Positions 1 through 6,000 of a stretch of DNA of 7,972 bases are shown one piece after another. The stretch's first letter is position 1, and the number at the start of each line of letters is the position of its first letter. Source of the stretch: a virus (lineage: Duplodnaviria; Heunggongvirae; Uroviricota; Caudoviricetes); IMG/VR virus record IMGVR_UViG_2671180884_000020, positions 1 to 7,972 of that record. One strand, given 5' to 3'. Made by a program: the position numbers.

Positions 1-3000
1 ACAGCCGTGTGCATGTTGTGGAAAGCCAGCTGATGATCCGCATCATCTGATTGGTCACGGCCAGGGTGGTATGGGGACAAAAGCGCATGATCTCTTTGTG
101 TTGCCTTTGTGCAGAAAACACCATGACGAACTGCATGTGGATACCGTGGCATTTGAAGAGAAGTATGGTTCCCAACTGGAGCTGATATTTCGTTTTATCG
201 ATCGCGCACTGGCGATTGGTGTGCTGTCCTGATTTTGTGGAGAAAGTTGATGCGTGATATTCAGATGGTTCTTGAACGCTGGGGGGCATGGGCGGCAAGT
301 GGTAACACCGGGGTGGACTATTCTCCGATAGCTGCTGGATTTAAAGGCCTTTTACCATCCACCGCTAAACCTCGCCCGGCCTGCAGCGATGATGACGGCC
401 TTATCATCGAAAACTGCCTTACGCGCCTGAAGAAGAAAAAACCGGACGAGTATTCGCTGCTGGTAGCTCATTATCTGCTGCGCATATCAAAAAGGCAGAT
501 TGCCAGAACAAGAAAGAAGAGCGAAAAGGCAATACGAATTGAGATGCAGATTGCTGAAGGATTTATTGACGGATGTCTGTCGATGCTGGGTGTAAGGCTG
601 GAGATGGACGACTGGCTGCCCAAAAAAGTAAAAAATGATTAGCGCGGTCCGCAAAAAGTATGTCAGTATGTTAAGAGTGGTTACTACGCCACACAACTTA
701 AACCCGCCGCCTGGCGGGTTTTTTATGACTGAAATCGCATCAGTACAGTAAACGTGCTGGTGGTGGTGAATACCGGTCTTTCAGCTTGCTGGCTTTTTCG
801 ACAAGAGTTATTGGTGTGTCACGTTAACCGGAAAAGGGAAAAAGACATGCTAAAACAGCAGGATATGACAGAAACCGCCAGAGTGGTGTTTAATGAATTA
901 AGTGCCACCGAACCGGCGACAGTCGGGGAGATTGCGCAGAATACTTACCTTTCACGCGAACGCTGCCAGTTAATACTGACCCAGCTGGTTATGGCGGGTC
1001 TGGCAGACTATCAGTTCGGTTGTTACAGACGCCTTCCGCAGTGAAGGCTTTTTTATTTGTGGTAAATGGGCGGCTGGTGGGTGTGGTGGTTGTTGCTTTC
1101 CCGTTGCTGAAAAAGAAAGCATCAGGCGATTAGCAGGGTATCAGTTACCCGTTGAAATTTTTAAATACCTCACAATTCAGGCGGTTGACTGTTGTCTGGT
1201 TTGCGGGGAGTTTGTTAAAAGAAACTGGCATGGTGAATCCCCCTGTGCGGAGGGGCAATCAGCAACTGGTGTTTTGTCACCGACCCTTATCCTTTCTGTG
1301 CGGGTTCAGGTGCTGATACTGAACTCACCGGGAGGCACCCGGCACCATGCAATGGCACATAGCGCCACTCTCCAGCCCCTCTCCGGAGGGGCTTTCTTAT
1401 GGACAAAAAAAGCCCGCGCTGGGAGACGCGGGCGGCAAGGAATAAACAACAAAACGTGAAGTAATATTTCAGCTGGCGAATAATATCCGACAGTAATCAC
1501 TCTGCGCAATAGCGCGGCCTTTTTCGTATTGCGGGCTGTAGTCTTCCTCCTGCCATTGTCCTGTAACTTCCGGACTTCAGCCCGTTCCCTCATCTGACTC
1601 ACAACATTATCCCGACCGGGAGGATTCATGACATTTAAACACTATGACGTGGTCAGGGCGGCGTCGCCGTCAGACCTTGCGGAGCGACTGACACAAAAAC
1701 TGAAGGAGGGGTGGCAGCCATTTGGCAGTCCGGTGGCCATCACGCCCTATACCCTGATGCAGGCCATTGCGGCGGAAGGTGATGTCACCACACCGGTGGT
1801 GGTGCAACCGTCGGGTGATGGTGGCGCTGTTATCAGCACCACCAGCGAACCGGAATATTACTTTGTCATTGCGCTGGCCGGGCAGTCCAACTCGATGTCT
1901 TTTGGCGAGGGGCTGCCGCTGCCGGATACGTATGATCGTCCTGACCCGCGTATTAAGCAACTGGCGCGTCGCAGCACGGTGACACCGGGCGGTGCGGCCT
2001 GTGCATATAACGACATTATTCCTGCAGACCATTGTCTGCATGATGTGCAGGACGTGAGTAATCTGAATCACCCGAAAGCAGACCTCAATAAAGGGCAGTA
2101 TGGCTGTGTGGGGCATGCCCTGCATGTGGCCAAAAAACTGCTGCCGTTTATGCCTGCCCGTGCGGGGATCCTTCTTGTCCCGTGTGGACGTGGCGATTCG
2201 GGATTTACTGCGGGAGCAGAGGGCGCGTTTAATGAGGCGTCGGGTGCGACAGCGGGCTCTTCCCTGTGGGGGGTGGATAAACCGTTGTATCGTGACCTGG
2301 TCAGCAGAACGCGTGCAGCCCTGAAGAAAAATCCGAAAAACGTGCTGTTGTCGGTGATCTGGATGCAGGGGGAAAAAGATGTCAGTTCGGGGAGACATGC
2401 AGAGCACAATGCACTTTTTCTTGCCATGGTAAATAAATACCGTGCAGACCTGGCAGATATTGCAGACCAGTGTATTGGCGGGACAACGTCCGGCGTCCCG
2501 TGGATTTGCGGTGACACCACGTACGACTGGAAGGCGAAGTATGCAGTGCAGTATGAGGCGGTTTACGGAGGCTATAAAGGCAAGGCGGCGCAGAATATTC
2601 ACTTTGTGCCGTTGATGACGGATGAGCATGGTGCGAATGTGCCGACAAACGAGCCGTCAGAAGATCCGGACATTATCACGGCGGGATACTATGGTGCCGC
2701 GTCACGCAGTAATGGTAACTGGACGACAGCCGATCGTAAAACGCACTTCAGCTCCTGGGCGCGAAGAGGCATTGTTTCAGATCGGCTGGCAGGAGAGATA
2801 CTGGTGCGAGCCGGGCGTTTGCTGCCGTTCCTGAGCGGGCAGTCTGCACCGCTGGCGACCACGCCAGCCTCCACGGGGGATGCACAGTCTGGCTCTGCGG
2901 GTCCGACGCAACAGCAGGGTGCAGGTACTTCTGCAGGCGGTCATACTGAAGCCGTAACAAGAATGGTGGCCGGATATGATGCGAACAGTGGCAGTGGTGT

Positions 3001-6000
3001 ATGGACAGAGCAGCAGTGGAATGCGTCCGGTGGTAAAGGCACTGTGACGGATGACAGTGGCAGGAAGGCGCTGCGACTGGAAAAACAGCCGGGTAAACTG
3101 ACCTCCTGGAAGATGTTCCGTACTGTTGCGGTGGAGGAGGCAAAAAATCTTCTCAGTAAGGGAGGTGAAATTGCCGTGCGGTTTAAGATCCCGGAGGGTG
3201 TCGAACTGGTTAACGGTCAGTTTGTCTTTGGTCTGTACTGGCCGGTGTCGCAGTGGGCGTCAGGCGCGACAGCAAACAGCATGCTGGCGTCCTTCTTCCT
3301 TCAGACGGATGCATCAAATCTGAATCTGATGTACCACAAGGGGGAGTCGAATGCGCAACTGGGCACATTTGGGGCATTTGACCATAACTGGCATACAGTT
3401 GTTTTCCGCTTTGCGGGAAATAACAGCGAAAAAGTGGTGCCGGTGATTGATGATACAGAGCAGTCTGCGTTTGACCTGGTGATGTGGACAAATGATGGCT
3501 TTACAGCAGATACGCTGACGCTGACAGATATCACGGGGGCAAAAGCGACGTATCCGGTACTGCTTGATACGGTCACAGTCAAAGTTAACGAAAGCCGGGC
3601 ATCATCATAACCGGCAAAAAAAACCGCCAGCGGCAGGAACGGAAGCTGGCGGAGGTAATCCCAATGGAGAATGTAAAGAAAAGATGCTTTCGTATATCGG
3701 TTTTTTAAATGAAAACAGTTCTCATTGTCAACCATAACGGTAAGAAACTATGACATTTGTTCATCAGGTGATGCTGTACTTCTGTACGGCGGTCTGTGTG
3801 CTGTATCTTCTTTCGGGTGGGTACAGGGCAGTGCGCGATTTCTGGCGCAGGCAGATTGATAAAAGGGCCGCAGAGAAAATCAGCGCCAGTCAGTCAGCCG
3901 GAGCAAAAACAGAAGCCCCACTCATTCCGGAACAACCTTCTTAATAACCCCTTTCAACGAGAAAATCCTATGTCAGAAATAAAATCGCTGGTCACTGCTG
4001 AGGCAGTGAAGGAAGTCCTGCGCTCTGAAGAAGTCCGGAGCGCACTGAAACAGCAACTTCGGCAGAACCTTGAGGCGCGTCTTGATGCAGAAGTGGATTC
4101 AATTCTGGATGAATTGCTTGGTGCACAGCCGGAACCATCCCCGGAACTGCTTCCGGAACCACAGGCGGAAGATGTCACCACGGAAAATGGTGATATTCAG
4201 CCGGAGCCACCGGTGACGGATATGACAGACACACAGCCAGAATCGGGCACAATGCTGTAACGGTGAGTCAGGGTCATCAGTAAAGAGCTGGTGGCCCTTT
4301 TGTTGTTGTGAGCTTCCGAGTACGGGAGACGGGGTATGTACCAGATGGAAAAAATCACAACAGGTGTGTCATACACCACGTCAGCGGTGGGAACGGGCTA
4401 CTGGTTCCTGCAGTTGCTGGACAGGGTTTCCCCGTCTCAGTGGGCGGCAATAGGCGTGCTGGGGAGTCTGCTGTTTGGGCTGCTGACATATCTGACTAAC
4501 CTGTATTTCAAAATCAGAGAGGACCGGCGTAAGGCGGCGCGGGGAGAATGAACTGGTGAGCAGAAAACTCCGCTATGGTTTATCGGCTGCCGTTCTGGCG
4601 CTGATTGCCGCTGGCGCTTCTGCGCCTGACATTCTCGACCAGTTTCTGGATGAAAAAGAAGGCAACCACACCACAGCATACCGTGATGGTGCGGGTATCT
4701 GGACCATCTGCCGTGGAGCCACCCGGGTGGATGGTAAGCCTGTTATTCCTGGCATGAAGCTGTCGAAGGAAAAATGCGACCGGGTTAATGCCATTGAGCG
4801 TGATAAGGCGCTGGCATGGGTGGAGAAAAACATCCGGGTGCCACTGACCGAACCCCAGAAAGCGGGGATCGCGTCATTCTGTCCGTACAACATTGGCCCC
4901 GGTAAGTGTTTCCCGTCGACGTTTTATAAACGAATTAATGCTGGTGATCGCAGGGGAGCATGTGAGGCGATTCGCTGGTGGATTAAGGACGGTGGCAGGG
5001 ACTGCCGTATTCGCTCAAATAACTGTTACGGTCAGGTATCCCGGCGAGACCAGGAGAGCGCGCTGGCGTGCTGGGGAATCGACAGATAAGCAGAATATTT
5101 TGCTGAAAAATGACGTTGGCCAACGCGGGCGGATAACACGAAATCCTGCGAGCTGGCAAAATGTAAGTGAATAAAGTCAGGAACATTATTTCACGCAGAG
5201 GCACCGTAATGGTGCCTTTGTCATTTCTGCGCTTCGCACAAGCGTAAATAAACCAAAGAACCTTTCAGGATGAGCCCTGGTGGATAACCGGCAGTGGTCT
5301 GGTTAACCCTCTTTGGGCTGGTTATTCCTGTGCGCAGGGTTCATCACTAAAAGGAATCAACCATGAAAGAGATGATTTCTGTCGATCATGAAATATCCAT
5401 GAGTAGTCTGGATTTTCTGAATAACATTATTAATCCAGCCCGGGCAGAAGCCGGAGAAGTCCCTCATGAACCGCGTAAGTTTCTTGCAAAAATTGAGGAT
5501 GAGCTAGAGCTTGATGGAACCGGAAAAAAATTCCGGTTAAACAATAACCAGACAAGAACGGCATACTATGATCTGGATTTTGACCAGATGATGCTCGTTG
5601 GCATGAGGGAGTCAAAGGCCGTTCGTCGTTCTGTGCTGGCAAGACTCAAAGCGATGCATGGTATTCAGATCCCCCGGACTTTACCTGAGGCGTTGCGATT
5701 TGCGGCAAAACTGGCTGAACAGAAAGCAGTGCTGGAAAATCAACTGGCAATAGCAGCGCCGAAGGCTGAATTTGTTGATAACTATGTTGAAGCATCTGGT
5801 CTGATGGGATTCCGGGAAGTTGCTAAGTTACTCGGTATCAAAGAAACCGATTTCCGGCTGTTTTTGTTGGAGAACGGAATAATGTATCGCCTCGCTGGAA
5901 AAATGACGCCTTACTCGCATCACCTGGATGCGGGGCGGTTTAGCGTGAAAACGGGCGAGGCGGGCAATGGTCATGCTTTTACGCAGGTTAAATTCACCCC

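Follow-up and report, generated by a model that had tools for sequence, protein, structure and literature searches.

A NanS-p family sialate O-acetylesterase gene in its own conserved slot of an stx-less Escherichia prophage, with a candidate capsid-docking domain

In Escherichia coli, the nan regulon includes the gene for NanS (YjhS), a sialate O-acetylesterase with a single domain. Phages carrying Shiga toxin (Stx) genes encode larger relatives, termed NanS-p (z1466/L0105 in 933W and vb_24B_21, or gp84, in phi24B), which have three domains and occupy a slot between the small RNA (sRNA) gene STnc100 and the genes for DUF1378, DUF826, and holin. Between seven and ten NanS-p alleles of EDL933, together with five of O104:H4, are reported to be active and to support growth on 5-N-acetyl-9-O-acetylneuraminic acid (Neu5,9Ac2), and these alleles include some from non-Stx prophages (Saile et al. 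2016, 2018, as relayed by secondary sources). Here we analyze a gene with the same domains and in the same slot, found in a viral genome fragment (Caudoviricetes; positions 1 to 7,972 of IMG/VR record IMGVR_UViG_2671180884_000020), with “the window” referring to the whole 7,972-nucleotide (nt) stretch. In the open reading frame (ORF) list, the gene spans 1628 to 3610 on the plus strand, stop codon included, and encodes 660 amino acids (aa) from an ATG start; it is flanked upstream, across a gap of 985 nt, by the gene for antiterminator Q and downstream by the holin gene.

By homology, the product is an ordinary three-domain NanS-p family sialate O-acetylesterase, and its gene is a conserved late-region gene of Escherichia lambdoid phages and prophages. 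The assignment follows from the combination of DUF1737, a SASA domain, and a separate C-terminal domain, together with matches to two solved structures: aa 74 to 392 match E. coli NanS/YjhS (PDB 3PT5; E value, 1e-111), and aa 448 to 654 match PDB 6YP6 (deposited as “NanS-p”; E value, 6e-47). The protein matches phrog_143 of PHROGs over its full length (E value, 2e-300), and Pfam searches place SASA (PF03629) over aa 157 to 276 (38.6 bits; cut-off, 24.8) and DUF6645 (PF20350) over aa 509 to 617 (E value, 4e-32). According to a review of STEC (Shiga toxin-producing E. coli) phages, 6YP6 is the crystallized C-terminal domain of phi24B vb_24B_21, a lectin-like jelly roll. The four aromatic residues of its proposed sugar site (Y510, Y515, Y540, and F611) align to F532, Y537, F557, and F625 of the window protein. 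An earlier note on this DNA had recognized the esterase family, and the domain search matched both DUF1737 and SASA (formerly DUF303). The GQSN motif that it named lies at aa 85 to 88, the Gly/Ser/Thr-rich linker is present at about aa 396 to 447, and its guess of a lectin-like C-terminal domain agrees with the homology to the jelly roll of 6YP6. That domain is indeed separately folded, but its length is ∼207 to 213 aa (aa 448 to 654 or 660) rather than 250 aa.

The SASA/SGNH type II domain is shared with chromosomal NanS at ∼53 to 55% identity. NanS is reported to use Ser19 and His301 and to have an inverted oxyanion hole in which Gln18 is held in place by the QGE motif of block III; it is described as having no block V Asp. 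The equivalent motifs of the window protein are GQSN, WMQGE (aa 245 to 249, within WMQGEKD at aa 245 to 251), and RKTHFS (aa 370 to 375); the predicted nucleophile Ser87, base His373, oxyanion Gln86, and QGE motif are all kept. Like NanS, it combines a Ser-His dyad lacking the block V Asp with a Gln-based oxyanion hole, and unlike NanS it adds DUF1737 and the lectin-like domain and has no N-terminal export signal. The catalytic Ser, His, Gln, and QGE and the sugar-site aromatics are also conserved in the NanS-p proteins of Stx phages, to which overall identity is 58% (phi24B) and 62% (Stx2a_WGPS2). The window differs from these in having no stx cassette upstream, a DUF1737 loop that is 3 aa shorter, a linker 2 that is ∼20 aa longer, and the block II motif RGDSGF (aa 188 to 193) instead of RGGSAF, with Asp190 replacing the SGNH block II glycine and further changes beside it (C187G and A192G). 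Of the 136 unique family sequences collected, 16 have this variant, and these 16 are 85 to 100% identical among themselves. Judged by sequence, it is a sub-lineage trait that gives no ground for excluding the protein from the NanS-p family. The ratio of nonsynonymous to synonymous substitution rates (dN/dS), computed between the window gene and its 85 to 88% identical relatives, was 0.13 to 0.14 for the catalytic domain, 0.04 to 0.19 for DUF1737, and 0.12 to 0.16 for the C-terminal domain, compared with 0.89 for linker 1 and 0.45 to 0.66 for linker 2. All three domains are under purifying selection, and both linkers are fast evolving and near neutral. The Asp190 sub-lineage is accordingly best read as a probably functional enzyme under purifying selection.

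Apart from the missing stx cassette, the locus is ordered as in Stx phages. Stx2a_WGPS2 and phi24B have, in sequence, Q, a small ORF, a methylase gene, three tRNA genes, stxAB, STnc100, the esterase gene, DUF1378, DUF826, and holin; the window has Q, small ORF, STnc100, esterase, DUF1378, DUF826, holin, and lysozyme. The esterase gene does lie between Q and holin with no toxin ORFs, as the earlier note had said, and a tblastn search of the window found no StxA, StxB, or upstream methylase. The further claim that it sits in the stx-equivalent position did not survive comparison with the Stx2 prophage L036, in which Q shares 94% identity with that of the window. With breakpoints set by blastn, window positions 1 to 1084 align to 5260 to 6343 of L036 and positions 1170 to 1400 align to 9182 to 9420. 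The slot of the stx cassette is consequently the short junction at 1085 to 1169, upstream of STnc100 and ∼460 nt upstream of the esterase gene. Because the 2.84-kb stx block maps to that junction, the esterase gene occupies a conserved slot of its own and not the stx slot. Nor is an esterase without stx unusual, as had been supposed. Among the 80 viral (IMG/VR) loci most similar to the window protein, stx lies upstream in 3 and is missing from 77, and an independent preprint reports that <3% of the chromosomal loci of the sRNA PasA, which neighbors the esterase gene, adjoin stx. With 77 of 80 loci having no stx and few PasA loci adjoining it, the stx-less layout is the default state and stx is the occasional insert. 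The non-Stx NanS-p alleles of EDL933 and O104:H4, which are reported to be likewise prophage borne, stx-less, and of the same family, are a direct precedent.

Transcription signals around the gene suggest Q-dependent late expression. An intrinsic terminator follows Q (700 to 727) in a layout matching the annotated pR′/qut/terminator region of phi24B, and further terminators or terminator-like hairpins lie between it and the esterase gene. No plus-strand terminator was found after the esterase stop codon or before the holin gene, and no sigma-70-like site was found on the plus strand from 600 to 4400 by a simple consensus scan, which a weak promoter could escape. With terminators upstream, none between the gene and holin, and no promoter-like site that would serve the gene alone, expression probably depends on Q. 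After induction, Q-modified RNA polymerase starting at pR′ would read through about four terminators, and the esterase would be made together with the lysis genes, probably only then. The earlier expectation of late-gene expression on induction is plausible from this layout and has been shown for relatives: nanS-p is reported to rise by 1 to 2.4 logs with mitomycin C and to be among the genes that norfloxacin induces most strongly. The label “moron” seems to suit the gene less well: a classical moron is self-contained, with its own promoter and terminator, and is expressed from the repressed prophage, but these scans showed neither signal here.

Several RNA features surround these signals. STnc100 lies upstream of the esterase gene also in two related loci (L002 and L003), and in Stx2a_WGPS2 and phi24B it lies between stxB and nanS-p. 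The ∼80-nt plus-strand unit from after the Q stop codon to the strong terminator (645 to 727) resembles the pR′-tR′ leader of Stx phages, has a weak and nonsignificant isrK-like match (16.5 bits; E value, 0.73), and could yield a short StxS-like RNA. On the minus strand, a promoter-like site (1634 to 1606) and a strong terminator (1433 to 1412) delimit a possible transcript of ∼190 nt antisense to the 5′ leader of the esterase gene. In phi24B the anti-sRNA AsxR is encoded at this position, on the minus strand and close upstream of the esterase gene; a permissive Rfam scan of 600 to 1700 gave no match to AsxR or AgvB at an E value of ≤1. A minus-strand ORF of 107 aa (1306 to 1629) is unlikely to be a gene; it crosses the minus-strand terminator, and in a relative this region is annotated as a pseudogene.

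As read from the sequence, the N terminus of the protein (MTFKHYDVVRAASPSDLAER...) has no signal peptide. An esterase without one would be released at lysis, and exit during lysis by holin, endolysin, and spanin is the simplest route. Outside the cell, the enzyme would strip mucin sialic acids of their 9-O-acetyl groups while its C-terminal domain would anchor it on glycans, making sialic acid usable to surviving sibling lysogens. Three further steps are less certain: DUF1737 may dock the protein on the phage capsid, as in phi24B gp84; later cleavage at [ST][ST]P linker junctions may release the enzyme; and the DUF1737 loop allele may be matched to the type of head module. Taken as a whole, we consider likely an explanation in which a NanS-p esterase is expressed late under Q, is released at lysis, acts on mucin sialates, and, less certainly, docks on the capsid through DUF1737.

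The docking step draws on a 2026 preprint (cryo-electron microscopy and proteomics) in which gp84, the NanS-p of phi24B, is an abundant virion protein. Hexamers of its DUF1737 domain (residues 2 to 57) plug into the T=9 capsid at the face-centre hexons via a loop containing Tyr42. Cleavage close to SSP motifs of the two linkers takes off the remainder of the protein, and the density ends at linker 1. In the window protein, aa 1 to 34 are near-identical to those of phi24B and WGPS2. The loop differs, being FGSPVAITPYTLMQAIAA with Tyr41 in the window (allele A) and YGSALISTAGYGAEFIQPVVS in phi24B. Three loop alleles were found across the loci collected (about 230 viral loci from IMG/VR), and the Tyr is kept in each.

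Loop alleles were compared with four types of head or packaging module found downstream: type I, HK97-like (PF04860 portal and a fusion of S78 protease and PF05065 major capsid protein [MCP]); type II, lambda-like (gpA-type TerL; lambda-family portal); type III, phi24B-like (P22-like portal; Phage_capsid_3 MCP); and type IV, a second gpA/lambda-portal lineage. The head module that begins at the end of the window is type I, the sequence stopping within its HNH gene; in L001, the closest relative, this gene is annotated as preceding TerS and TerL. The cross-tabulation comprises 51 unique protein-and-head combinations from nonindependent prophages retrieved with N-terminal queries. Allele A occurs with head types I (11 combinations) and II (10), allele B with IV (12) and II (2), and allele C with III (15) and I (1). 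The adjusted mutual information (AMI) of loop allele and head type was 0.72, against a maximum of 0.19 in 5000 permutations. The association was weaker for the catalytic domain (AMI, 0 to 0.21) and the C-terminal domain (0.27 to 0.36), though both lie nearer the head genes. Clustering of N-terminal DNA at 80% identity merged all alleles (AMI, 0.00); it was uninformative because the first 100 nt are conserved, and the loop-allele classes and a pairwise test were used instead. The pairwise test is free of clusters and gives the area under the curve (AUC) with which sequence similarity separates same-head from different-head pairs. The AUC was 0.88 for the loop codons (nt 90 to 174 of the gene), 0.80 for the adjacent 90 nt, and 0.51 to 0.64 for all other segments in the stretch that reaches 4 kb upstream of the start codon and 3 kb downstream of the stop codon; the segment adjoining the head module (3 to 4 kb downstream) gave 0.71.

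The linkers carry candidate processing sites. An [ST][ST]P motif is present in linker 1 in 107 of 112 proteins (17 expected from shuffles) and in linker 2 in 45 of 112 (18 expected). In the window protein, TTP occurs once in each linker and nowhere else, at aa 54 to 56 (1787 to 1795) and aa 411 to 413 (2858 to 2866), positions that correspond to the SSP motifs at aa 57 and aa 414 of phi24B, the proposed processing sites.

Other parts of these loci follow the head less closely. The catalytic and C-terminal domains have been shuffled almost freely among phage backbones (L004 to L235), a single catalytic cluster (≥80% identity) spans the four head types, and the holin/lysis DNA between the esterase and head genes has no association with head type.

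Several points weigh against the docking account and the wider explanation that contains it. First, allele A is shared between two different head modules, with identical N-terminal sequences found in both settings, which fits a highly specific capsid contact poorly; strict specificity of one allele for one head is ruled out. Second, the phi24B capsid is T=9 and is built from a different MCP family, and gp84 occupies only its flat face-centre hexons. The head module of the window is HK97-like, with the S78 protease-PF05065 fusion and PF04860 portal, in contrast to the Phage_capsid_3 MCP and P22-like portal of phi24B. Third, the association rests on 51 nonindependent loci chosen by N-terminal queries. 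Fourth, Asp190 lies in block II, so activity or specificity may differ from that of the tested enzymes. Finally, the esterase activity, expression, and virion presence of the window allele are predictions from relatives and from sequence. By analogy with phi24B, capsid docking of this allele is plausible, with chances that run from somewhat unfavorable to about even. More tentatively, NanS-p proteins may be not a toxin-linked moron but a general capsid-display module of Escherichia lambdoid phages, matched to head type. Allele A would then dock the esterase-lectin unit on T=7 capsids of the HK97-like and/or lambda-like kind, in the way that allele C does on the T=9 capsid of phi24B, [ST][ST]P sites would allow release, and swappable cassettes, including the Asp sub-lineage, would tune the glycan target.

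The alternative that survives best is that the gene is purely lysogenic-conversion cargo, a moron benefiting the host alone by giving it access to O-acetylated sialic acids, with DUF1737 having no virion role here. This is how the earlier note saw it, and we regard it as possible but improbable on balance. The esterase gene is an “extra” one relative to the Q-S interval of lambda, and its G+C content (0.53 to 0.60) is above that of the flanking lysis region (0.46 to 0.55). Allele A is common to two unrelated head modules, and NanS-p proteins of EDL933 and O104:H4, non-Stx alleles included, are reported to allow growth on Neu5,9Ac2; these points favor the cargo view. Against it stand the lack of a promoter-like site or terminator belonging to the gene, purifying selection that is stronger on DUF1737 (dN/dS, 0.04) than on the other two domains, a loop allele that tracks head type across >4 kb of unassociated DNA, and the reported abundance of the phi24B homologue in virions. 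The phi24B preprint and the allele-head association together suggest that the N-terminal domain docks on capsids and that the protein is partly virion associated.

The enzyme might instead modify or destroy a receptor, de-O-acetylating bacterial surface polysaccharides (O-antigen or a capsule such as O-acetylated polysialic acid) and so aiding adsorption or the release of progeny from debris, as viral hemagglutinin-esterases do. The possibility is raised in the STEC phage review, a lectin-like domain joined to an esterase and a capsid anchor is the architecture expected of a virion-borne enzyme of this kind, and shuffling of the catalytic and C-terminal domains independently of the backbone is typical of host-range modules. 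It is nevertheless unlikely, as the relatives tested are reported to act on Neu5,9Ac2 and mucin glycans, the catalytic core is nearest the sialate-specific NanS, and the catalytic part of phi24B gp84 is apparently cleaved off the capsid. Least probable is a catalytically impaired variant, in which Asp190 would disable the oxyanion hole and leave a glycan-binding or capsid-decorating protein without esterase activity: RGDSGF does replace RGGSAF at the listed block II glycine of NanS, with C187G and A192G adjacent, but the block II oxyanion contact in SGNH enzymes is a backbone amide, Ser87, His373, Gln86, and QGE are intact, the RGDSGF sub-lineage keeps its low catalytic-domain dN/dS, and the viable phage PhiR5_1 carries the same motif.

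Under the favored explanation, in which a late-expressed mucin sialate esterase may also dock on the capsid, the protein would have functional analogues on other virus particles. Influenza C virus hemagglutinin-esterase-fusion protein (HEF) and coronavirus hemagglutinin-esterase (HE) bring a glycan-binding module and an SGNH sialate O-acetylesterase together on the particle, and T4 Hoc displays a mucin-binding domain on hexon centers. These proteins have no sequence relationship to the window protein, whose display on capsids would be by analogy with phi24B gp84. If confirmed, covariation of the DUF1737 loop with the head over four head types would extend a cryo-electron microscopy preprint on a single phage to the whole family. 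A gene supposed to be metabolic and virulence associated would then be seen as encoding part of the virion, one that may direct phages to mucus. The observation in its original form adds little, concerning a known gene family in its usual context: NanS-p proteins from non-Stx prophages had been published before, and RefSeq genomes already include an annotation of this exact gene. What changes is that the stx-less layout becomes the default and the stx cassette the insert; the sub-lineage with the Gly-to-Asp change in block II is uncharacterized.

The gene recurs in E. coli genomes. It is 100% identical in two complete genomes (2015C-3121 and DETEC-S792) and 99.6 to 99.9% identical in the other 13 genomes among the matches listed, where it is mostly annotated as a SASA family carbohydrate esterase. 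Megablast matches were found in 1296 of 5426 complete E. coli genomes, at a median of 3 places per genome. Among representatives taken as one genome per species, the full three-domain protein was found only in Escherichia albertii and one Escherichia sp., and matches to the catalytic core only were found in E. coli, Shigella, E. ruysiae, Proteus, and Edwardsiella. PhiR5_1, a lambda-like non-Stx phage of host E. coli C, encodes an allele of 88% identity that shares both the loop variant and the block II variant. A Xanthomonas pisi contig (L252, 648 to 887) encodes a DUF1737 N-terminal domain 49% identical to aa 1 to 80, and the domain exists well outside the Enterobacteriaceae.

Table 1. Coordinates of genes, protein domains, and RNA signals in the window
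Feature	Position	Strand	Basis or remark
DUF968, C terminus	71-232		
Antiterminator Q	235-642	+	PF06530, E 3e-52
tR′-like intrinsic terminator	700-727	+	∼60 nt after Q; 9-bp stem then U-run; −15.7 kcal/mol, z −4.45
Small conserved ORF, 65 aa	847-1044	+	phrog_331; annotated likewise in relatives L001 and L002
Terminator hairpin	1031-1048	+	End of phrog_331 ORF
stx cassette slot, junction	1085-1169		85 nt here versus 2.84 kb (methylase, tRNAs, stxAB) in L036; blastn
STnc100/PasD-family sRNA, full length	1199-1404	+	Rfam RF02076, 143 bits versus gathering score of 47
STnc100 own terminator	1374-1393		Hairpin, −17.3 kcal/mol
Weak terminator-like hairpin	1502-1517		
Shine-Dalgarno GGGAGG	1618-1623	+	4 nt 5′ of esterase ATG; read from sequence
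DUF1737 N-terminal domain (aa 1-53)	1628-1786	+	PF08410, E 1.2e-15 over aa 3-50
Linker 1 (aa 54-73)	1787-1846	+	Opens with conserved EGD-V-TTP junction motif
SASA/SGNH type II catalytic domain (aa 74-395)	1847-2812	+	3PT5 match, catalytic motifs
Linker 2 (aa 396-447)	2813-2968	+	Gly/Ser/Thr/Pro/Ala/Gln-rich; TTP at aa 411-413
C-terminal lectin-like jelly-roll domain (aa 448-660; DUF6645)	2969-3607	+	6YP6, PF20350
DUF1378 ORF	3750-3944	+	Pfam; between esterase and holin
DUF826 ORF	3970-4260	+	Pfam; between esterase and holin
P21-type holin	4336-4551	+	PF04971
Lysozyme	4556-5089	+	PF00959
KilAC/Ant antirepressor	5363-6058	+	
Rz	6506-7000		
Rz1	6726-6911		Embedded in Rz
HNH endonuclease, first 103 aa	7662-7970	+	tblastn, 98% identity to L001 HNH

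The remaining genes of the window are those of a lambdoid late region (Table 1); tRNA genes were not found in the window. The phrog_331 ORF lies directly 3′ of the tR′-like terminator and has a weak TrmB-like winged-helix match; in Stx phages it sits upstream of the methylase gene. The order DUF1378-DUF826 is common to the three related loci L001, L002, and L003. The KilAC/Ant gene interrupts the lysis cassette between lysozyme and Rz and is followed by several tiny ORFs, and this layout is found in Stx phages too. Downstream of Rz, the 267 nt at 6965 to 7231 have as their counterpart positions 9966 to 11705 in L001 (E. coli SW070917), where a ParD/ParE toxin-antitoxin pair and a KilA-N gene lie between Rz and a YlcI/YnfO gene.

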